Part shown: positions 24,699 to 40,610 of the stretch, one piece after another
Layout: the number at the start of each line of letters is the position of its first letter
Numbering within the stretch: position 1 is the first letter of the stretch
NCBI GenBank assembly: GCA_000165345.1
Contig: CM000431.1
Location: 896,001 to 960,000, forward strand
DNA length: 64,000 bases
Reading direction: 5' to 3'
Translations under genes and position numbers: made by a program
The notes under the pieces: model-generated
What the model was told of the DNA's origin: nothing
Databases searched by the model: none
What the model saw: the letters and a program-made list of their open reading frames with translations, nothing else

Positions 24699-26669
24699 AT
24701 GAATTCTTTTGGTGCAATAAATGGGCAAGGAGAAGATGATGATGACTTAGAACTTCAGCGTGCATTATCTGAATCCCTTCGCGAATTTAATAATACCAAT
24801 AATATATTAAAAAATAATGGCATTCAAACTCTGGATGAAAATAAAAAGCAGAGTAAGGATAACAACGATATTGAATTTATCAATAACTCTGTAACATTTG
24901 ATGATTTGATAAATTATTCAGAGTCTATGCAGAATGAATTGGTGAATATATTGAATCTTAATAATAATAATTGTAATAATTGTAAGAAAAAGAATGATAT
25001 TGATTCTTTAACTCAGATAATAACAGGAAAGAAAGTTATTATAGATAATAAATTACACGAACATTTTAATGAAACTTATGACCCCTATAAAGATAAAGAA
25101 TTAAAACCTTTACCCATTGACAATGTAAATGAAATTATTGAAATAATTTTTGGAATTAATGGAAATTTATTGGCTCAGGATGAAGACATTAAAAGATGGA
25201 TCTATCATTCAATTGAGTTTACATGTAATTCAATTCCAAAAATAGAAGATGATAATAAAACTGATTTTTTTAAGGAAAATCGATCAATTTTCACTTTTAA
25301 AGAAAACTTTAAAAGTATGAACTACTGTTTAATTCAACAAGGAGGTGGTCCTTGTGGAGTTTTAGCTTCCCTGAATGGATTTATTATAAGTCAATTAATA
25401 TTTAATCCTTTAAGGCTTAAAATGATTAAGGAAAAATATCAGGAAGATCTGGTTGAGTATTTGAATTCTATAAGTGAGGAGGATTGTTGGGAAGCTTTAA
25501 TTCAATCAATATGTATGATATTTTTCCAATCGTCTCCTGAAAGCAAGTATCGTGTTATTCAGTATAAACCATATGAAAAAATGGAAACACTTCAACAGAA
25601 TAGACATTTTGACTTGATAAGTAATTGTTTAATTGGAAATGGAAACAATTTGTATTATTATGTTGAATATGATGATATTATGGAAGTTTATAAATTCTAC
25701 TGGAGACGTTTAAAATCTGGAATCTTCTCTAATATTGGCTCATTATTTTCAATATTAGTTTCGATTGTTGGTTCAAGAACTCCAAATCAGATTCGCTTGG
25801 ATATGGATGACTTTACGAATCCTTTAGTAGGAATGTTTGGTCATTGTAGTCAAGAGCTTGTGAATCTATTTATCACAGGAAGTGCAGTATCTAATGTGTT
25901 TGATGGTGTAAAGATTTTGAACGATAATGGTGGAGGAACAGTAACAGGAGCAGGTGATACTAATGAATCGCTATCTTTAAAAGGTATTTATAAGAAGTCT
26001 ATACTAGGTTATTTAACAGAACATGAAGCATTACAGTATTGTAAAGTTGGATTAAATTATAAATATCCTCTTTATCCTATTTGGATTATTGTTAATAAAA
26101 ATCACTATAAATGCTCATTCAGTTTTAATTTCAATGAATGTATTCTAACCATTTCTCAAGAGTTTATTCAAGTTATGCAAAAAGCTTTTGAAAAGTTTGA
26201 TACTGAAAATTCTGGATTTATCTTTGATAATCAATTAGAAAAGTTTCTAAATGAAATTAATTTAAAAGACTGTATGTTTGAACTTAAAAAATTTAGTGAA
26301 AATGGAATAATTCTGTGGAATGATTTAAAGAAGTGTATATTAAATTTGGTGGGAATCGAAAATGAAGAAGATAATCAACTTAGAGGAAGTAGAACAGGAG
26401 ATAATTCTTTAATAAGCCAATATAAATTATGGACTTCTGTATATATTTTTGATGGTCAAAATCATATTGGAAAGAAATTAATCATTTCTACAATATTTCC
26501 ACTTGAAAACTATTCCAAAACTAAAAAACTTTACGATAAATTTTCTTCTAATCATAAACAAAATGACAATGATAAAAGAAAATCTATTGAAGAATTGGAT
26601 TTAATTTCAATTTTACAAACAAGATGGGGAGGAGAGACTGTAATTGAAACTAAAATCTTAAACCTATAA
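24699..26669 (+). CDS. MINDY-3 (FAM188/DUF4205) family deubiquitinase with an N-terminal UIM and a C-terminal EF-hand-like region
   Basis: UIM-like DDDDLELQRALSESLREF. The catalytic-Cys motif QQGGGPCGVLASLNGFIISQLIF aligns with human MINDY-3 EGGPCAVIAPVQAFLL. ITGSAVSNVFDG, LQYCKVG and YPIWII blocks are conserved. EF-hand-like FEKFDTENSGFIFDNQLEKFL. Confidence 0.75.
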   Translation: MNSFGAINGQGEDDDDLELQRALSESLREFNNTNNILKNNGIQTLDENKKQSKDNNDIEFINNSVTFDDLINYSESMQNELVNILNLNNNNCNNCKKKNDIDSLTQIITGKKVIIDNKLHEHFNETYDPYKDKELKPLPIDNVNEIIEIIFGINGNLLAQDEDIKRWIYHSIEFTCNSIPKIEDDNKTDFFKENRSIFTFKENFKSMNYCLIQQGGGPCGVLASLNGFIISQLIFNPLRLKMIKEKYQEDLVEYLNSISEEDCWEALIQSICMIFFQSSPESKYRVIQYKPYEKMETLQQNRHFDLISNCLIGNGNNLYYYVEYDDIMEVYKFYWRRLKSGIFSNIGSLFSILVSIVGSRTPNQIRLDMDDFTNPLVGMFGHCSQELVNLFITGSAVSNVFDGVKILNDNGGGTVTGAGDTNESLSLKGIYKKSILGYLTEHEALQYCKVGLNYKYPLYPIWIIVNKNHYKCSFSFNFNECILTISQEFIQVMQKAFEKFDTENSGFIFDNQLEKFLNEINLKDCMFELKKFSENGIILWNDLKKCILNLVGIENEEDNQLRGSRTGDNSLISQYKLWTSVYIFDGQNHIGKKLIISTIFPLENYSKTKKLYDKFSSNHKQNDNDKRKSIEELDLISILQTRWGGETVIETKILNL

Positions 26670-26670
26670 A

Positions 26671-28260
26671 TTAAAAATTTTTTAGTTCGTTTGGTATTGG
26701 ATTATTTGAAGTTAAAAGGATTTTTTTGAGCTCAGGAAATAATCCCGAATCTTCAGGTGTTATAAATGAAATAGCAATACCATTTTTCCCAGCTCTTCCT
26801 GTTCTTCCAATACGGTGAGTATAAGTATCAATCGATTTTGGGAAATCATAATTTATAACAAGGTTAATATTATTAATATCAATACCACGTCCAGCAACAT
26901 CGGTAGATACAAGAATGTCAAATACTCCGCTTTTAAACAAATTAAGACTATTTTCTCTAACTTCCTGCATTTTCCCACCATGTAGAGAAGTTGCTTTAAA
27001 ACCATGAGATACAATTTCTCTACATACAATATCTACCATCTTTTTTTGGTTAAGAAAAACAATAATTGGTGGTACTGCCAATTCTTTATTATTTAAAGTA
27101 TTAATTAACGTAGATTTCTTTTTATTTTCACTAATAAAATTGAGTATTTGTTGAATTGATTTTTTTCCTGCTCCAATATCTCCAATAGTAACATTAATTG
27201 GCGAATTAAGATACCTTTTCGCAATGTTTTCAAGCTCTTTCTGCATAGTAGCACTAAACATATGAGTAGTTCTTTGAATCTCTGGCGGTATCTGATCAAG
27301 AATAAAGTTGAGAGAGTCTTGAAATCCTAAATCAATCATTCTATCAGCTTCATCCAAAATAACATATGAACATTGTACTAATACTGTTAATGTTTTTTCA
27401 AGACAATCCTGCATTCTACCTGGAGTTGCAATAATAATCTCCACTCCTTTTCTAAGTGAAAATGCTTGTTGATCAATATTTCTTCCTCCAACAATAGATA
27501 AAGTACGTATTCTTTTTAATTCATGAGTTTTATTTAATAATTTTTGAGCTTCATCTTCAATTTGAAGTGCTAATTCTCTGGCTGGAGCAAGAATAAGTCC
27601 ATATGGTCCTTCTTGACTTGTTTTATAATCAAGTATTGGTTTATTCCCTACATAACTAATAAGTGGAATTAGAAAAGCTATAGTTTTACCACTACCAGTT
27701 TCTGCTATTCCTATCATATCCCTAAGTTTTAATCCAATAGGAATACATTGCATTTGAATTGGAGTTGGCTTTTCATAACCAATATTTCTAATTAACTCTG
27801 TTTGTATTTCTAAAACATGACAATCTTTCCAATTACGTATTGGATTTGGAACATCTTTGCCACGTACATTAATTGAGTAATCTTCTCTAAATATTTTCCA
27901 ATCTCTCTCAGTCATATCAAAATATCCCAAATCTGATTTCTCATCCAAAAATTCATCATTCTTTCCATTACTATCTTCTTTTCTTATTCCTTTCTTTTTC
28001 CTCTCGCTTAACATCTTTTCTATATTTAATCGATTCATATATAATTCATTTGACCCCAATGAAAAAGTATCCTCATTATTGCTCCATTCAAACTGTAGCA
28101 TGCCTCTATGTCTTTTTTTGCTCTTTCCATCTTCAACATTACTACTTATTAAGTCATAATTAACAACATTATCCTTCTCATCCGAATTAGCTTTATTAGC
28201 TAATATTGATTGATCGTTTTCATACCTATCTAACCTCTCTAGTCCCGGAATCTTCAACAT
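26671..28260 (-). CDS. DEAD-box RNA helicase of the PRP28/DDX23 (U5 snRNP 100K) type
   Basis: MTERDWKIFREDYSINVRGKDVPNPIRNWKD is the DDX23-specific N-terminal extension. AETGSGKT, DEAD (VILDEADRM), SAT, and HRIGRTGRAG are present. Confidence 0.9.
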   Translation of the reverse strand: MLKIPGLERLDRYENDQSILANKANSDEKDNVVNYDLISSNVEDGKSKKRHRGMLQFEWSNNEDTFSLGSNELYMNRLNIEKMLSERKKKGIRKEDSNGKNDEFLDEKSDLGYFDMTERDWKIFREDYSINVRGKDVPNPIRNWKDCHVLEIQTELIRNIGYEKPTPIQMQCIPIGLKLRDMIGIAETGSGKTIAFLIPLISYVGNKPILDYKTSQEGPYGLILAPARELALQIEDEAQKLLNKTHELKRIRTLSIVGGRNIDQQAFSLRKGVEIIIATPGRMQDCLEKTLTVLVQCSYVILDEADRMIDLGFQDSLNFILDQIPPEIQRTTHMFSATMQKELENIAKRYLNSPINVTIGDIGAGKKSIQQILNFISENKKKSTLINTLNNKELAVPPIIVFLNQKKMVDIVCREIVSHGFKATSLHGGKMQEVRENSLNLFKSGVFDILVSTDVAGRGIDINNINLVINYDFPKSIDTYTHRIGRTGRAGKNGIAISFITPEDSGLFPELKKILLTSNNPIPNELKNF

Positions 28261-34581: not shown

Positions 34582-35081
34582 CATAATATTTAATTTTGCT
34601 TGTATACAAAATATATTTGAAGATAATGATAAATTAATAGAAATATAAACCCTAAATTGAACTAGAATAATAATTATTTTAGGTTATGCCGTTATTTAAG
34701 TTAACTTTTTTTGTATTTATTTATTAATAAATGAGTGTCAGTAAATATATTTGAAACCAACTCATATACAGCAATACTTTTGTTTCTTTGTTTATTGCAT
34801 GCAAAGTAAAAATAATTGTGGGAGCTTTGCCGCGCATTTAATTAAAATATTAGTAATAATAGTTGATTCATTCAATAACATTGTAATATATTGGATGAAT
34901 TTGTAGTTATATTGAAGATTAAATTTGAATTGAGTTCATATGATTGTTTTCCAATATATCTAAGCTGATTAAGGTTGCGTATATTTATATATACATATTT
35001 ATGCAAATTGAGTTTGTAATCTTGTGCAATAATATAATACTTTGAAAAAAAATTACCATTACTATATGGCAAATTGATTTC

Positions 35082-35408
35082 TTGAGAAAAACTACTATGA
35101 ATGAAAGTATTGGAGAATTAACAACAATTCCGATCATATATTCGAAACAACACAAAGAAAGACTAGTTCTACTTGAATTCCAGGGATCTTTAAGTATATC
35201 TAAATTGAATACAGAAACTGGGGAAATGATTAATTCTGAAAACAATGACGATTTTAATGACACAGTTATTGGTCAATTGATTAACTTTGATAAAATCTCT
35301 CAAAGTTTAAATAATCCTGAAATTGTCAATCCATTAGAATCTGCAATTCAATATTCTAAAAACAACCCAATAGAACTTAAGGTGGGATACCACAAACTTA
35401 TTGGCAAA
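35082..35408 (+). CDS. CTF8: CTF8 (chromosome transmission fidelity 8, CTF18-RFC subunit) exon 1. The start may be the ATG at 35097.
   Basis: VLLEFQGSLS.. and KVGYHKLIGK align with human CHTF8 VLMELQGEIE.. and IVGHHILYGK. A GTAAGT donor at 35409 interrupts the K of ..LIGK|. Confidence 0.65.
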
Positions 35409-35500
35409 GTAAGTTAAATTTTTCTTTTCATTAATAAAAATACTCATAATTTATTACCTCTAATTTTTCTACTACCAATAATATTAAAATATCATTCTAG

Positions 35501-35638
35501 TTAGTGAAACTAGAAAAACCTTTAGCCGTCATTCAAAATTCCTCAGAAACACAAGAAAAAGATAAAAGTCACTTAAATATATATGATATTATTCATTTTA
35601 AACTAGTTTTTGAATCTAGACCTTTATTTTCTTCTTAA
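35501..35638 (+). CDS. CTF8: CTF8 exon 2
   Basis: cattctAG acceptor at 35499-35500. LVKLEKPLAVIQN...YDIIHFKLVFESRPLF aligns with CHTF8 IIHLEKPFAVLVKH..YLVTALIKDKILFKTRPKPI. Stop at 35636-35638. Confidence 0.65.
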   Translation, partial: LVKLEKPLAVIQNSSETQEKDKSHLNIYDIIHFKLVFESRPLFSS

Positions 35639-36019
35639 TTATATACAATTTGGACAATATATTGAGTTATTGTATGTGTTATTGCCATAATTATAATTGC
35701 CACATAAATTACATATAACGAGTTCGCAATTACTGCATTCTGATAATTTGCAATTAGCGTTATCGCAAGTACTTCTATCGCAATACCCACATTTTACTTT
35801 TTCGATATTCAAATTACTCTTATTCAGAGATCTTCTATTACATAGAGAACAATATTCTTTGATTATTTGGTTCAAATTCTTTTGGCTTTGAGTTAAACAC
35901 CATACTGTATGCTTTTGTTTATTATCTTTATCAATAACTCTCTCTGATTTTTTAATTGTATTAAAGTTTGTTTCATTTTCGTAATCATAATTTCTTTCTC
36001 TTTTCATTTTTTTCCCCAC
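35639..36019 (-). CDS. small Cys-rich putative zinc-binding protein (126 aa, 14 Cys in CxxC pairs)
   Basis: CSLCN..CGYCDRSTCDNANCKLSECSNCELVICNLCGNY..CPNC. Its stop codon directly abuts the CTF8 stop (convergent, zero spacer). Confidence 0.5.
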   Translation of the reverse strand: MGKKMKRERNYDYENETNFNTIKKSERVIDKDNKQKHTVWCLTQSQKNLNQIIKEYCSLCNRRSLNKSNLNIEKVKCGYCDRSTCDNANCKLSECSNCELVICNLCGNYNYGNNTYNNSIYCPNCI

Positions 36020-36644
36020 TTTCTTACTTAATTATTGAATCTCCAATTCGAAATCCAAATAGATTCTTCCTCATGCTATGGGTGAATTAATTCAAAAAAA
36101 TAAAATAAAATAATCCAATTGATGAAAACTCTAATTTAACTTAATGAATGAAAGATATTACTCACTGTAGATAAGATAATTGAAAGTGGAACAAGTAACC
36201 CAACTTTCTCTATCTTACTCAATTCACAATATCCGAAGTAATTAATCGTTAAAATAATTTCTTTTTAAACCGATTTATTATTATTACTTTTATTTATTTT
36301 TTTTTTTATATTTTTTAAATTACGTAATTATTTATTAATTTCAGAACATGTGGGGAAATGTGCAAGAAAAGACACGTAAGTGCATGAATTTCGGTGCATG
36401 CAATATAAATTAGCAATCAAATTACAAAAAAATCATATTTGTCCGGTACTCTAATAAATCTATATAATTAATTTGAGTAAAACTTATATTAAACATCTTT
36501 TTGAGAATGAATACATCAATTTATATTGAGCATTTTTGGTAGAAAATTAATTTTAATAATTAGTTCAAGATAACTACAAAGAAATTATTAAATTTGTGAG
36601 TAAACTGGATGAAATTAAGACTATTTACTTTAATAACTTATTAA

Positions 36645-39600
36645 TTGGGAATATTTAAGCTGGAAATTAACTTTTTAATAACATTTAATAAAATGAATTC
36701 TCTTGATTTACAAGTTAATGGAATGACATGTACGTCATGTGCTACTACAATAAAAAACTTATTATTACATTACAAATTTGTAAAAGATGTTGAAATAAAT
36801 ATCATTTTAAATAGTGTACGTGTAATATTGAATAAGAAAATCACACTTGATGAAAGAAAAAAGATTTGTGACACAATTAACAATGCAGGATTTATTTGTT
36901 TATTAAAGTCAAGTACAATAATGAATGACATGTTAACTTTAAGTATTGATGACCTTAAGTTAGAAGAAAGAAGTTTAGAAAGTGAAATAATTTATGGAAG
37001 TTCAAAAGATATAGCTGAACAAATTTTGAACAGTAAAGGAATAAAGTTTTTAAAATTACATCAAATACCAACAGAAGAGATGAAATTAATAGTAAAAGCA
37101 TTAGAAAATAAAGCTGGAATTATTACTATAATAAGTTATTTGAAGTGGGGACAATTATGCATTTTATTTGATGAAAATCAGATTACTATAACGCAGATAC
37201 AAGAAATTCTAGAGAAATCTGATATTTGGATGCTAAGTTATATGAAATTCTATTGTTTATTTGGTAAGGAAAAGCTTTCATGTGTAAACAATCTTAAAAT
37301 TAAATGTATTTTCCGTTTAAATTCTGATAGAGAAGGTATTAGCATAATACAAAAGATATATAATTGTTTAAGACGAAGAAATGCAAATATTGAGTTCAAT
37401 AAAGATTTTACAGCAAGTATTGGTTGTATTGTAAGTGGAATCTTTGGGATTTACAATGTATCCGTTGAAAGAATGAATGAAAATAATTTGGAGAGAAATC
37501 TTGTTCTAATGATTTGCATTGATTATAATCCTTACTTTATTTCTGGGAGGAATCTATTAAAATATATGAATGATGAAGTTTTAAAAAACTACGTTAATGA
37601 ACCAATTCTAGATGAACAAATTAATGAAAATAAATTGAGAAAGCAATACTCACATAGGTTAGTGAATTCAATGCAAATTATTACAAAGTGTAATTTGGAT
37701 GAAAGTGTTAATTACTCAAGCCTGCAAAAAATTAAAGATAAGGAGTCTCGATATTATGTTATTTGTTTTACAATTTCTTTAATTTTAACTATTATGGTAC
37801 TATTATATAATTTCTTGGGTGATAAACCCTTTATGTCCAAGTTTACAAGAATTATCTCTTTTAATACAATCAAATCTTTGCAAGATCAAACAGGATTATC
37901 TGGTATTAGTTGGAAATATTTGATAAATTTAATATTAGTCACAGTAGTGGTATATTTATGTGGATATACATTTCATAAGAAAGGAATCAAAAGTATGCTA
38001 TATTTGAATCCAAATATGTATAGCTTAATTTCACTTGGAACAAATACATGCTATTTGTATTCACTTTATATGATGATTTATATAGCAATAATATCTTCAA
38101 AAGGTCCTGAAAATACAAAAATATATTCAGATAAGTTACCCAATTTTTTTGATATTGCTTGTATGCTTATCACAATAAGCTTATTTGGAAGAATTTTGGA
38201 TGTACATTCAAATCTACTGATATTAAGAATTATTAATAATAATAGTAATAAAAATGAAGTTGGTGAAAATGGAGATTCCATGAGGTATAATATAAAAGAT
38301 AATTTTCAATTACTTGGTGAAACTAAATTTGAATCACTTGAAAAAGTTTATTATCATTTTTCAAACTCTGAGAATTGTCAGGTATTACCTTTAGCATCTC
38401 CAAAAGATTTAAAGAAAAATAAGGAATTCCGATCAAAATATAAAAATACAGAAATTGGACAAAAAATGAATACTATGAGCATAGACTCAATTTGTTTGGA
38501 TGATATTTCACCTCAATCTATGGAAATGAAGGAACAGAGCTCAATTATTAATAATATAGTAAATGTTGATTTAATAGATTTGGGGGATGTTATTATTTTA
38601 AAAAAGGATGAAATTGTACCATATGATGGAATTGTTATTTCTAATGATATCGCAGTTTTGGATGAATCAATGATTACTGGTGAAAGCAGAATCATTGAAA
38701 AATTATATGGAAATTTTATATCCAGTGGAAGTAGAGTATTATCTGATAATGTATTCATATTTGTTACTGAAGTAGGAACTGAAAGTACTCTTGGAAAGAT
38801 TCAAAAGTTAAAAATAAAAGCAAGAGAGAGTCAAATAGAGTTACCTGGAATTATTGATATATTTTCCAGATATTTTGTACCTTCAATCATATTATTATCT
38901 TTATTGGCTTTTGTTGTTTGGTTCTTATTAGCTTATTATGACAAAGTGGATCCAGCTAGAATGTTTAATATTGACAGAATAAACTTTAATACAGAATTTG
39001 ATAATATATTTAAAGAATTTCCAATTTCATCCAGAGTTATGTTTGCACTGCATTTCTCACTTTCAATATTGGCAATATCTTGCCCATGTGTTATTGGTAT
39101 TACAGTTCCTATTGCTGTACTTATTTCAACTTCTTTAACTTCAAAAAAGAATATATTGGTACAAAACACAAATATTTTCAATAATATAGGATTTATTGAT
39201 AATATAGTTTTTGATAAAACTGGTACTTTGACAAATGGAAGACCAACTGTCAAATCTATTATTATTGATCATGAACATATTCAAGAAATAATAAGTACTA
39301 CATTTAATAATGGTTACAGTTCAAAATGGGAAAAGTCGACTGATATAGATTTTTCTAATTCTTCTATTGAAACATTTTATATTAATAAGAATTCTAATAT
39401 TCAAGAAAAAAATATTGTTTTTGAAGAATTATTCGAATCTTATTTAAAGTTTTGGTGGATTATTGGATCTTGTGAATATTATAATAATCATCCAGCTGGA
39501 AATGTATTAAGATCTTTCTCAATTCGTCTATTTAATAATAAAGAACAATATAAGTTTACTCAACCTATTGATTGTAAATATATTCCAGGAGTAGGAATGA

Positions 39601-40043
39601 CTTGTATTATTAATAGCATGAAAGTTTTAATTACAAATCAATATAAGCATCTTGATCAAGATTTCAGTTTAGTTTCAGTCAATTCTAAAGATTATAATCA
39701 TTATCTAAAGAGTCCATCTAATACTTTAGAAATTTCTTTAGATAGTCCTGAAAATAAGAGTACAGAATATTCATCATTATATTTGCAGAATTGGCTTAAA
39801 TATTGGTCTAAAAAAGGATCAATGATTATTTACATTTTTATTGGTGATATAAATAACTTCAGTGATAATGAACATGGATTAATTAATGCCAAAAATATGA
39901 AATTAGTTGGTGCAGTTTCTATGATTGATGAACCAATGTTTGGAGTAGAGTCTACAATTAATTATATGAAAAAATATGTAACAGATCAAATATGGTTGTG
40001 CTCTGGTGATTCTTTTTATACATCAAATTCAATTGCGTCAATG
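36645..40043 (+). CDS. Cu(+)-transporting P1B-type ATPase, exon 1. The start is probably the ATG at 36693 (MNSLDLQVNG..).
   Basis: HMA motif GMTCTSCA. TGES (MITGESR). CPC (SCPCVIGITVP). DKTGTLT. Exon ends ..SIASM|, followed by GTAAGT at 40044. Confidence 0.9.
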
Positions 40044-40105
40044 GTAAGTTTATTAAAAGAAAAATTCAATAATTTTTGAATAACTTAATATATTTTTAAT
40101 TAAAG

Positions 40106-40494
40106 GTTGGAATAGATTATGATAAAATTATGAGTAATTCAACTCCTAATGATAAGCTTCATCTTATTCAAGATCTTCAATTAAATAAGGAATTAGATAA
40201 GATATCTAATATTGACTTAAATGAAGAAAAAACAGATAAAGAGTTCTTCAAATCTTTTGATTTAGAATTTCCTGAAAAGAATGAAGAAAATATAAAGAAA
40301 AAACAAAAAAAATCCAAAAAAAATCTAAAAAAAGTAATGATGATTGGAGATGGAATAAATGATTCAGCTTCAATAGAAGCTGCTGACATTGGAATATTAT
40401 TAGGAAAAGGCGGGATAAATAATTTTACGCATGCAGATGTAATAATATTGTCAAATTATCAAAATAATATTAAATTCTTATTTAAGCTTGGAAG
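40106..40494 (+). CDS. Cu-ATPase exon 2
   Basis: taaAG acceptor at 40104-40105. VGIDYDKIMS...LHLIQDLQ ... MIGDGINDSASIEAADIGI (the GDGxND hinge). Contains a K/E-rich insertion. GTAAGT donor at 40495. Confidence 0.8.
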
Positions 40495-40610
40495 GTAAGT
40501 TAAAAAGAGTAAATTAGGAAATTTTGAAGATGAGATTTTTGAGTTGTTTTTTTCCTTCTGATTTACTTAATAATTTATTGATTTAATAACTTTATTATTA
40601 TTATTATTAG

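Follow-up and report, generated by a model that had tools for sequence, protein, structure and literature searches.

The locus described here lies on chromosome 3 of Cryptosporidium parvum, within a stretch of 64,000 nucleotides (the window) that matches CP044420.1 with 0 mismatches, one gap opening and 99.965% identity over 8.5 kb. It is best read as two ordinary nuclear protein-coding genes standing tail to tail with no intergenic DNA, one a spliced gene for the clamp-loader subunit Ctf8 and the other a gene for a Cys-rich, Siva-like protein, a reading to which we assign a probability of roughly 0.9 (Table 1). The stop codon of Ctf8 touches a TTA (35639-35641), which read on the opposite strand is the TAA stop of the convergent gene; a preliminary description of this DNA had placed one stop against the other at 35638/35639, and the sequence confirms it. 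Both genes are annotated in CP044420.1 with identical limits, abutting, and the gene order is conserved across a block that comprises a 546-aa gene, Ctf8, the Siva-like gene and a Cu-ATPase. A scan of the whole window against Rfam returned no matches.

Table 1. Features of the Ctf8/Siva-like locus, with positions counted in the window
Feature	Position	Strand	Remarks
E2F-like TTTGCCGCGC, candidate promoter element	34826..34835		putative; about 268 nt upstream of the Ctf8 ATG
Ctf8 exon 1	35097..35408	+	ATG to ..KLIGK, 104 codons, phase 0 end; limits as for the gene in CP044420.1
Ctf8 intron, spliceosomal	35409..35500	+	92 nt, GTAAGT...TTCTAG, phase 0
Ctf8 exon 2	35501..35638	+	LVKLEKPLAV...FESRPLFSS, 45 codons; TAA at 35636-35638
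AATAAA, candidate poly(A) signal of the Siva-like mRNA	35623..35628	-	motif scan; putative; inside Ctf8 exon 2
TAATTA, back-to-back stops	35636..35641		0-nt spacer, palindrome
Siva-like Cys-rich protein gene	35639..36007	-	122 aa, single exon
First two AATAAA, candidate poly(A) signals of the Ctf8 mRNA	36099..36109	+	motif scan; putative; beyond the Siva-like ATG

The exon-intron structure of Ctf8 largely follows the preliminary description, in that a GTAAGT donor after ..KLIGK (GGC AAA | GTAAGT, its G at 35409) and a cattctAG acceptor (last base 35500) delimit the intron, and exon 2, read from 35501, translates as LVKLEKPLAVIQN...FKLVFESRPLFSS before reaching its TAA. The start given earlier, at 35082, is a merely mechanical TTG of the open reading frame; the true ATG at 35097 yields a protein of 149 aa and agrees with the annotated limits. 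Thirteen GT..AG pairs in the region keep the frame open, and the consensus GTAAGT donor occurs in the 35409/35500 pair only; the 12 alternatives were rejected, having either a non-consensus donor or the effect of deleting conserved residues. Since this is the sole pair of the 13 with a consensus donor, and since the same junction recurs in every orthologue, the splice stands above chance expectation. The position of the intron is shared by all 10 Cryptosporidium genomes examined, C. muris and C. andersoni included, and its length ranges from 47 to 98 nt in the eight genomes in which it was measured.

The spliced product is recognizable as a Ctf8 family protein over nearly its entire length. 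Residues 21-146 match positions 6-131 of the 133 in the Pfam Ctf8 profile (PF09696), scoring 56.5 bits against a cut-off of 22, and the match crosses the splice junction. Searches of the PDB recovered the yeast Ctf8 chains (5msm_B, 8tw9_D) as their only matches, with E=0.026 for the single sequence and 0.01 for the profile; this alignment also crosses the junction, and the pairwise similarity is weak (E about 0.01). Together with a GenBank spliced model of identical sequence and with hhalign, these matches support the two-exon CTF8 gene proposed at the outset. The accompanying proposal that its product of roughly 150 aa aligns with human CHTF8 is likewise upheld, as hhalign gave a probability of 94.7% (E=5.7e-8) against a human CHTF8 sequence, and paired VGHHILYGK|IIHLEKPFAV of that sequence with VGYHKLIGK|LVKLEKPLAV of the parasite protein. 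In yeast, a salt bridge joins Arg128 of Ctf8 to E724 of Ctf18 (PMC5376975); this Arg aligns with C. parvum R144 in exon 2, and both R144 and P145 are invariant in the 8 intestinal-clade Cryptosporidium orthologues aligned. Ctf8 proteins have a beta-rich fold that makes a triple-barrel with Dcc1; an AlphaFold2 model of the C. parvum Ctf8 monomer, built on a 4-sequence alignment, predicts strands in its C-terminal half, with a pLDDT of 48.8 that makes it unreliable. By homology, Ctf8 would associate with Dcc1 and with the C-terminal end of Ctf18, and the three would make up the accessory module of Ctf18-RFC, an alternative PCNA loader; this Ctf18-Dcc1-Ctf8 module would tether the loader to DNA polymerase epsilon and support sister-chromatid cohesion and checkpoint signalling. 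For C. parvum we infer this function from family membership; a Ctf18-type AAA+ protein of the parasite (QOY40793.1) has been reported (PMC10931551).

An alternative model of the gene, in which it is unspliced, the product is a 106-aa exon-1 protein ending in ..GKVS* and the downstream LVKLEKPL... frame is non-coding, coincides exactly with the older public models of C. parvum Iowa II, C. hominis and C. tyzzeri. An mRNA that retained the intron would indeed yield this product, because the third intron codon is an in-frame TAA (GTA AGT TAA). Against it, the exon-1-only proteins carry no recorded Pfam domain, whereas the spliced protein matches the whole Ctf8 profile, and the best-conserved block of Ctf8, with the Arg that touches Ctf18 in the yeast protein, is encoded by exon 2. 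Exon 2 is also conserved as well as exon 1 or better: across the four species compared, identity is 64.1-93.3% in exon 1 and 72.5-95.7% in exon 2, and it drops to 39-79% in the intron (in the comparison with C. meleagridis, 78.6% for the intron and 93-96% for the exons). Furthermore, the variable columns of exon 2 in six species fall at the first, second and third codon positions in the ratio 16/7/30, and this dominance of third positions is a coding-type substitution pattern. The spliced model has moreover been adopted in newer annotations, among which the BGF gene structures were curated with Iso-Seq and RNA-seq data according to the paper describing them (PMC12179316). We therefore regard the unspliced gene as extremely improbable, and the splicing of 35409..35500 as supported by the sequence itself, by comparative data and by the annotation of other groups.

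This gene model is already public, and orthologues of both genes already bear the names Ctf8 and Siva. The spliced 149-aa protein is an exact match to two C. parvum entries in GenBank, QOY42724.1 of IOWA-ATCC (CPATCC_0034730, with identical gene limits) and WRK31613.1 of BGF (cpbgf_3003720), both called 'uncharacterized protein', while two-exon models of the same structure are named 'Ctf8 family protein' in C. meleagridis and 'sister chromatid cohesion protein Ctf8' in C. felis. Unlike the IOWA-ATCC and BGF entries, XP_626920.1, the older entry for Iowa II, breaks off inside the intron, and 106-aa models that stop there are found in the older annotation of C. parvum Iowa II, C. hominis, C. tyzzeri and the chipmunk genotype; two C. 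canis models, of 157 and 149 aa, read through the intron. The earlier characterization of the subunit as rarely annotated accordingly holds for these older models, which stop in the intron, and fails for the newer annotations of C. parvum, C. meleagridis, C. ubiquitum, C. felis and C. muris, which carry the spliced gene. Literature searches retrieved no paper on Ctf8 in Cryptosporidium, nor any under guessed locus identifiers, and a search for Cryptosporidium with Siva gave matches that looked irrelevant, Siva being an author name in one of them. In practical terms, CPATCC_0034730 and cpbgf_3003720 can be named Ctf8, and a correction is due for the 106-aa models of Iowa II, C. hominis, C. tyzzeri and the chipmunk genotype and for the 157-aa and 149-aa models of C. 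canis. Outside such annotation hygiene the importance of these observations is small.

Upstream of Ctf8, the candidate element TTTGCCGCGC is the sole G/C run of 5 or more within 519 nt, and it differs by one mismatch from motif 3 (DTTGSCGCCH) of PMC3734150. Eight species of the intestinal clade have a similar site between -234 and -271, with the variants TTTGGCGCGC in C. canis and TTTGCCGCGT in the SRR18693150 contig.

The convergent Cys-rich gene had been described as encoding 126 aa with seven CxxC-type pairs. Its existence and its abutting stop are supported, and Siva-like protein is the more exact name; its dimensions need revision, as 36019 is the GTG start of the open reading frame, whereas the ATG at 36007 opens the MKRER with which every orthologue starts and gives 122 aa. 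An exact match to this protein exists in the C. parvum entries EAK88976.1 and QOY42725.1 (GenBank). Six Cys pairs are counted rather than seven: five strict CxxC and one Cx4C account for the 12 genus-invariant Cys among a total of 13. The N-terminal half of the protein appears basic and helical, and the 12 Cys make up a C-terminal module, which resembles the zinc-finger-like C-terminus of metazoan Siva and is predicted to bind probably up to three Zn ions. Against the Pfam Siva model (PF05458) it scores 30.0 bits with a cut-off of 26.2, a marginal excess of 3.8 bits. In hhalign comparisons with vertebrate Siva (E=1.1e-4, probability 56.8%), the alignment covers the Cys-rich C-terminus only.

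That the minus-strand gene might instead encode an unrelated, lineage-specific Cys-rich zinc-binding protein, its CxxC spacing having come to resemble that of Siva by convergence or composition, is less likely than not. Both the narrow margin of the Pfam score and the modest hhalign probability would fit such a protein, as would N-terminal halves that defy alignment. When the family profile was run against 1.84 billion representative proteins, moreover, the only matches at E of 1e-3 or better were three Cryptosporidium representatives, with no bridge to other lineages. The PDB contains no solved Siva structure with which to compare the family, sequence and profile searches of it gave chance-level zinc-ribbon matches only (E of 0.1 or worse), and an AlphaFold2 model from 12 sequences has a pLDDT of 48.6, falling below 50 over residues 62-122. 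What speaks for a relationship to Siva is that each of the 12 invariant Cys has its counterpart among the 12 conserved Cys columns of vertebrate Siva (C114, C117, C127, C130, C135, C138, C142, C145, C150, C153, C167 and C170), with order kept and with both modules C-terminal, and that the Siva model was matched independently by six of the nine orthologues (E<0.1), no other family recurring. As the alignment is limited to the Cys-rich C-terminus, the neighbour of Ctf8 is best called Siva-like, a protein that appears to share the C-terminal domain, rather than a full Siva orthologue. A Siva-type Cys-rich module in an apicomplexan is of marginal interest when set against the statement that SIVA1 has counterparts only in higher eukaryotes (PMC4068132), the similarity being already present in database annotation.

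Turning to the junction itself, we compared the stop-to-stop spacer in nine genomes, a series that leaves out the andersoni-type contig. The spacer is 0 nt in six of them, where the junction reads TAATTA or TGATTA; in C. ubiquitum it is -4, the two genes overlapping by 4 nt (TTAA), while C. felis has 76 nt and C. muris 52 nt between the stops. Abutment of this kind is not rare in the C. parvum genome, where tight packing is ordinary, since the window holds eight convergent ORF pairs and in two of them no more than 1 nt separates the genes; in the second such pair, a MINDY-type deubiquitinase gene is 1 nt away from a DEAD-box helicase gene. On the present reading the zero spacer results from the extreme compaction that genomes of the intestinal clade of Cryptosporidium have undergone. 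In the lineages with 0 nt the intergenic spacer was, on this reading, simply lost, given the 52 nt of C. muris and the 76 nt of C. felis and coding ends that lie at homologous residues. The locus offers a clean, conserved case of compaction, with spacers of 52 and 76 nt in two species against 0 nt or a 4-nt overlap in the others.

With a spacer of zero, any 3' UTR has to be transcribed from the coding sequence of the partner gene, and the transcripts would thus be partly complementary at their 3' ends. It is a sound inference from the sequence that a 3' UTR of the Ctf8 or the Siva-like mRNA must lie antisense to the coding sequence of the partner, and not to its UTR alone. This agrees with reports that UTRs frequently overlap in C. 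parvum (PMC12179316; bioRxiv 10.1101/2025.01.17.633476), for which a poly(A) consensus A(A/G)TAAA has been given (bioRxiv 10.1101/2025.01.17.633476). The candidate AATAAA on the minus strand lies 10 nt downstream of the Siva-like stop; in the junction sequences read, this hexamer is intact in C. meleagridis, whereas C. ubiquitum, C. canis and the chipmunk genotype have it in altered form. In DNA this rich in A and T, candidate hexamers of the poly(A) type occur often.

A different view of the arrangement would hold that the zero spacer is a selected regulatory device rather than the result of passive compaction, the antisense 3' overlap coupling the expression of the two genes or letting each limit the other, for example through transcriptional interference or duplex RNA. 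The tail-to-tail pairing is genus-wide and the zero spacer is kept in six divergent species, and antisense transcription is described as widespread in C. parvum in two studies (PMC7840661; PMC12179316). The spacers of C. muris and C. felis, however, imply that abutment is not required, and where no spacer is left every indel harms the end of a coding sequence, a state that would persist without special selection. In addition, synteny of the whole block is conserved anyway, and the deubiquitinase/helicase pair in the same window, unrelated to this one, is separated by a single nucleotide. We consider a selected device of this kind quite improbable.

One further attraction of a regulatory interpretation is that the two proteins could act in one pathway, as human SIVA1 binds PCNA and bridges it to RAD18 as an adaptor (PMC4068132), while Ctf8 belongs to a PCNA loader. 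In its fullest form, the genus-wide pairing would reflect a functional link in which both proteins serve a single PCNA pathway, their expression is coupled through the antisense 3' overlap, and the Siva-like protein is a minimal, non-metazoan Siva; were this true, the Cryptosporidium protein would display the ancestral role of the Cys-rich module. We hold this to be very improbable. The PCNA-interacting motif of human SIVA1, defined at residues 83-96 (PMC4068132) and including Q85 and I88, falls in a region left unaligned in the Cryptosporidium protein by profile-profile alignment. A canonical PIP box was also considered for the Siva-like protein, by visual inspection of the alignment, and rejected: its invariant Q42-K-N-L45-x-x-I48 resembles QxxLxxΦΦ, lacks the aromatic pair and is unaligned to the human motif.

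Taking the two genes as ordinary neighbours brought together by compaction, their resemblance to known systems can be set out as follows. Like Ctf8/CHTF8, as represented by the yeast structures 5msm and 8tw9, the C. parvum protein is small (149 aa versus 133 in yeast) and consists of a full-length domain with the blocks LLEFQG and GK-V-KL-KP and a C-terminal FxxRP block bearing the Arg that corresponds to the Ctf18 contact. It departs from that family in that some 30 additional residues, in which N, D and S abound, are inserted between conserved blocks one and two; the insertion is shorter in two Cryptosporidium contigs. In comparison with Siva/SIVA1 (PF05458, 'CD27 binding protein'), the Siva-like protein is likewise small, and its 12-Cys module has the same order, near-identical spacing and the same location at the very C-terminus. 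However, it has 122 aa in place of about 175, the N-terminal, death-domain-homology and PCNA-interacting regions of SIVA1 have no detectable counterpart in it, and at HMMER sensitivity the family is detectable within Cryptosporidium only. Finally, the pair resembles the overlapping convergent units of compact genomes, of which C. parvum generally provides examples, in that the genes converge with no room for separate 3' UTRs; it differs from C. parvum UTR overlaps in general in that here the overlap must reach into coding sequence on both sides.

Direct reading and translation of the window, whose G+C content is 25.8%, revealed a plus-strand gene of two exons followed by a convergent minus-strand gene for a Cys-rich protein (see table). 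The plus-strand frame opens mechanically at a TTG (35082), with its first ATG at 35097; the exon 1 product, MNESIGELTT...GYHKLIGK, is followed by GTAAGT, and the unspliced frame meets a TAA at the third intron codon (GTA AGT TAA). The acceptor, ...cattctAG, leads into an exon 2 that translates as LVKLEKPLAVIQNSSETQEKDKSHLNIYDIIHFKLVFESRPLFSS, and its stop codon and that of the minus-strand gene both lie inside the hexamer TAATTA, with a spacer of 0. The preliminary description had picked out this donor, this acceptor and the directly adjoining stops, all of which are seen in the sequence. It had placed the gene limits at 35082 and 36019 (a GTG); the start codons are instead the ATGs at 35097 and 36007, the minus-strand protein measures 122 rather than 126 aa, and its supposed seven CxxC-type pairs amount to five strict CxxC pairs and one Cx4C pair.

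Features of the locus and of a second convergent pair (window coordinates)
Feature	Position	Strand	Remarks
MINDY-3/4-type deubiquitinase	24699..26669	+	Pfam, 151 bits
DEAD-box helicase	26671..28260	-	
Upstream neighbour, 546 aa	32941..34581		syntenic in every Cryptosporidium locus fetched
Candidate E2F-like site TTTGCCGCGC	34826..34835		sole G/C run of at least 5 in the 519 nt upstream of the Ctf8 ATG
Ctf8 exon 1	35097..35408	+	
Ctf8 intron	35409..35500	+	
Ctf8 exon 2	35501..35638	+	TAA at 35636-35638
Candidate AATAAA	35628-35623	-	10 nt past the Siva-like stop, within Ctf8 exon 2; motif position only
Siva-like gene	35639..36007	-	stop is TTA 35639-35641
First AATAAA 3' of the Ctf8 stop	36099	+	beyond the Siva-like ATG; motif position only
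Copper P-type ATPase gene	36693..40498		HMA and E1-E2 ATPase domains

The spliced 149-aa protein matched Pfam PF09696 with 56.5 bits (cut-off 22 bits) over profile positions 6-131 of 133, the junction included; no Pfam hit is on record for exon-1-only models. Searches of the PDB with the single sequence, or with a profile of eight orthologues, recovered yeast Ctf8 chains only, and the alignment with yeast Ctf8, ..L(I/L)GK(L/V)(V/T)KL(E/D)(K/V)P.., crosses the splice site uninterrupted. R144, encoded by exon 2 and invariant among the eight intestinal-clade orthologues aligned, corresponds to yeast Ctf8 R128, for which the crystal structure shows a salt bridge with Ctf18 E724 (PMC5376975). The proposed alignment with human CHTF8 also held in a profile comparison (94.7% probability, E=5.7e-8) that pairs VGHHILYGKIIHLEKPFAV with VGYHKLIGKLVKLEKPLAV, a result to be taken as a lead. 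On sequence grounds, the spliced plus-strand gene is Ctf8. Modelling the monomer with AlphaFold2 gave a poor result (pLDDT 48.8), which is unsurprising because the alignment held only 4 sequences and the yeast homologue shares a large interface with Dcc1 (PMC5376975). Between the conserved blocks, residues ~65-90 of exon 1 (..KISQSLNNPEIVNPLESAIQYSKNN..) vary in length within the genus, being 8 and 17 residues shorter in two read-archive Cryptosporidium contigs, and this segment is therefore probably a dispensable loop.

The intron was compared across the loci of C. meleagridis, C. ubiquitum, C. felis, C. canis, the chipmunk genotype, the two read-archive contigs, C. muris and a C. andersoni-type contig. 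At all fetched loci exon 1 ends in ..GK followed by GTAAG(T/C), and after an AG acceptor the reading frame resumes as (L/I/F/V)(V/E)KL.KPLA. The intron spans 47 to 98 nt in the eight genomes measured (the muris-type introns were read only), and its retention would result in an in-frame stop or a frame shift in all eight. In C. meleagridis the intron is 78.6% and exon 2 is 95.7% identical to C. parvum; in C. ubiquitum the corresponding values drop to 39% and 81.9%. The variable columns of exon 2 are distributed 16/7/30 by codon position. Thirteen GT..AG combinations would keep the C. parvum frame open, and 35409/35500 alone among them has a consensus donor. This comparative evidence argues strongly for a real intron, and the two-exon CTF8 gene of the preliminary description is upheld by the shared junction and by the PF09696 match across it.

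Homologue searches with both proteins returned Cryptosporidium proteins only. An exact-sequence look-up showed that entries for the 149-aa protein already exist from C. parvum IOWA-ATCC (QOY42724.1, CPATCC_0034730) and C. parvum BGF (WRK31613.1, cpbgf_3003720), in both cases as 'uncharacterized protein'; the 122-aa protein is deposited as EAK88976.1 and QOY42725.1. CP044420.1 calls both genes with identical limits, abutting; over 8,542 aligned bases it shows one gap opening and no mismatch relative to the window (99.965% identity). The original Iowa II model (EAK88977.1/XP_626920.1) is an exon-1-only protein of 106 aa (..GKVS*). Orthologues of the first gene are named 'Ctf8 family protein' in C. 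meleagridis and 'sister chromatid cohesion protein Ctf8' in C. felis, and those of the second 'Cd27 binding protein (Siva)' in C. hominis, C. meleagridis, C. tyzzeri and C. felis. The feature is already in public annotation, and the useful output is the corrected naming as Ctf8 with a list of mis-annotated orthologues: 1) exon-1-only Ctf8 models of 106 aa in C. hominis, C. tyzzeri, the chipmunk genotype (L007, 3001-3321) and C. parvum Iowa II, and of 117 aa in C. hominis TU502; 2) C. canis models of 157 and 149 aa (locus L006, 3001-3474), which erroneously continue through the intron; 3) the Siva-like gene, present in the DNA yet uncalled in C. ubiquitum and an older C. meleagridis assembly (faulty-model loci L004, L002).

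The stops are spaced by 0 nt in C. parvum, C. meleagridis, C. canis and the two read-archive contigs (TAATTA) and in the chipmunk genotype (TGATTA), overlap by 4 nt in C. ubiquitum (TTAA), and lie 76 nt apart in C. felis and 52 nt apart in C. muris. The residues at which coding ends are homologous in every case (Ctf8 ..RP plus 4 residues; Siva-like ..CPNC plus 0-2 residues), so the spacer was deleted rather than absorbed via extension; the order 546-aa protein, Ctf8, Siva-like gene, copper P-type ATPase is kept throughout. As the spacer is absent, the template for any 3' UTR would have to be the coding region of the partner gene, and it is hard to escape the conclusion that, if both genes are expressed, the 3' UTR of each lies within the other gene. 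For C. parvum, A(A/G)TAAA has been reported as the poly(A) signal (bioRxiv 10.1101/2025.01.17.633476); were the AATAAA downstream of Ctf8 used, the Ctf8 3' UTR would run antisense across the entire Siva-like gene. Zero-spacer abutment is not unusual for the C. parvum genome: the stops of the deubiquitinase and helicase genes are separated by one base (TAA a TTA), and one more convergent pair in the window is spaced by 80 nt. The Ctf8/Siva-like arrangement is typical of Cryptosporidium genome compaction.

The 519-nt stretch preceding the Ctf8 ATG has a GC content of 22%. Eight intestinal-clade species carry a TTTGCCGCGC-like site between -234 and -271, which is absent upstream of Ctf8 in C. muris and C. 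andersoni; it says little specific, because promoters of C. parvum very commonly contain E2F-like motifs (PMC3734150). The 546-aa protein matched no Pfam family above threshold, with weak coiled-coil-type matches around residues 350-450. In the ATPase gene, a probable intron (GTAAGT...AG, ~40044..40105) joins a 1128-aa ORF to the next ORF, and since the public product has 1308 aa there may be additional exons.

The 122-aa protein, encoded by a single exon, matched Pfam Siva with 30.0 bits (cut-off 26.2 bits), and 6 of 9 orthologues independently hit the model. The genus-wide alignment contains 12 invariant Cys (C53, C56, C73, C76, C81, C86, C91, C94, C99, C102, C118, C121). When the family profile was run against 1.84 billion representative proteins, all members recovered were from Cryptosporidium (the intestinal clade, C. 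felis and the C. andersoni/muris/serpentis group), a PDB search gave no solved structure to compare, and the Cys-rich half of the AlphaFold2 model was unreliable. Against a profile of ten aligned vertebrate Siva proteins (E=1.1e-4, 56.8% probability, 63 columns), 12 of 12 Cys fell on conserved vertebrate Cys columns, and the C-terminus is the end of both modules; the N-terminal part did not align, including human SIVA1 residues 83-96, the PCNA-binding region (PMC4068132). The human SIVA1 sequence used showed 96% full-length identity to the representative of a primate cluster. Given this C-terminal-only alignment, we prefer the label Siva-like to that of a full Siva orthologue, what is shared being the Cys-rich module at the C-terminus; the likeness could possibly have arisen by convergence.

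By analogy with its family, Ctf8 would form a triple-barrel module with Dcc1 and the Ctf18 C-terminus (PMC5376975), which would dock the Ctf18-RFC PCNA loader on Pol epsilon and support cohesion and checkpoint signalling (PMC5376975; PMC7641331). A Ctf18-type protein of C. parvum has been reported in a proteomic study (PMC10931551). The Siva-like protein, in turn, probably binds zinc via its 12 Cys. As human SIVA1 is a PCNA-RAD18 adaptor (PMC4068132), one could speculate, at long odds, that both neighbours act in one PCNA pathway with antisense overlap coupling their expression.
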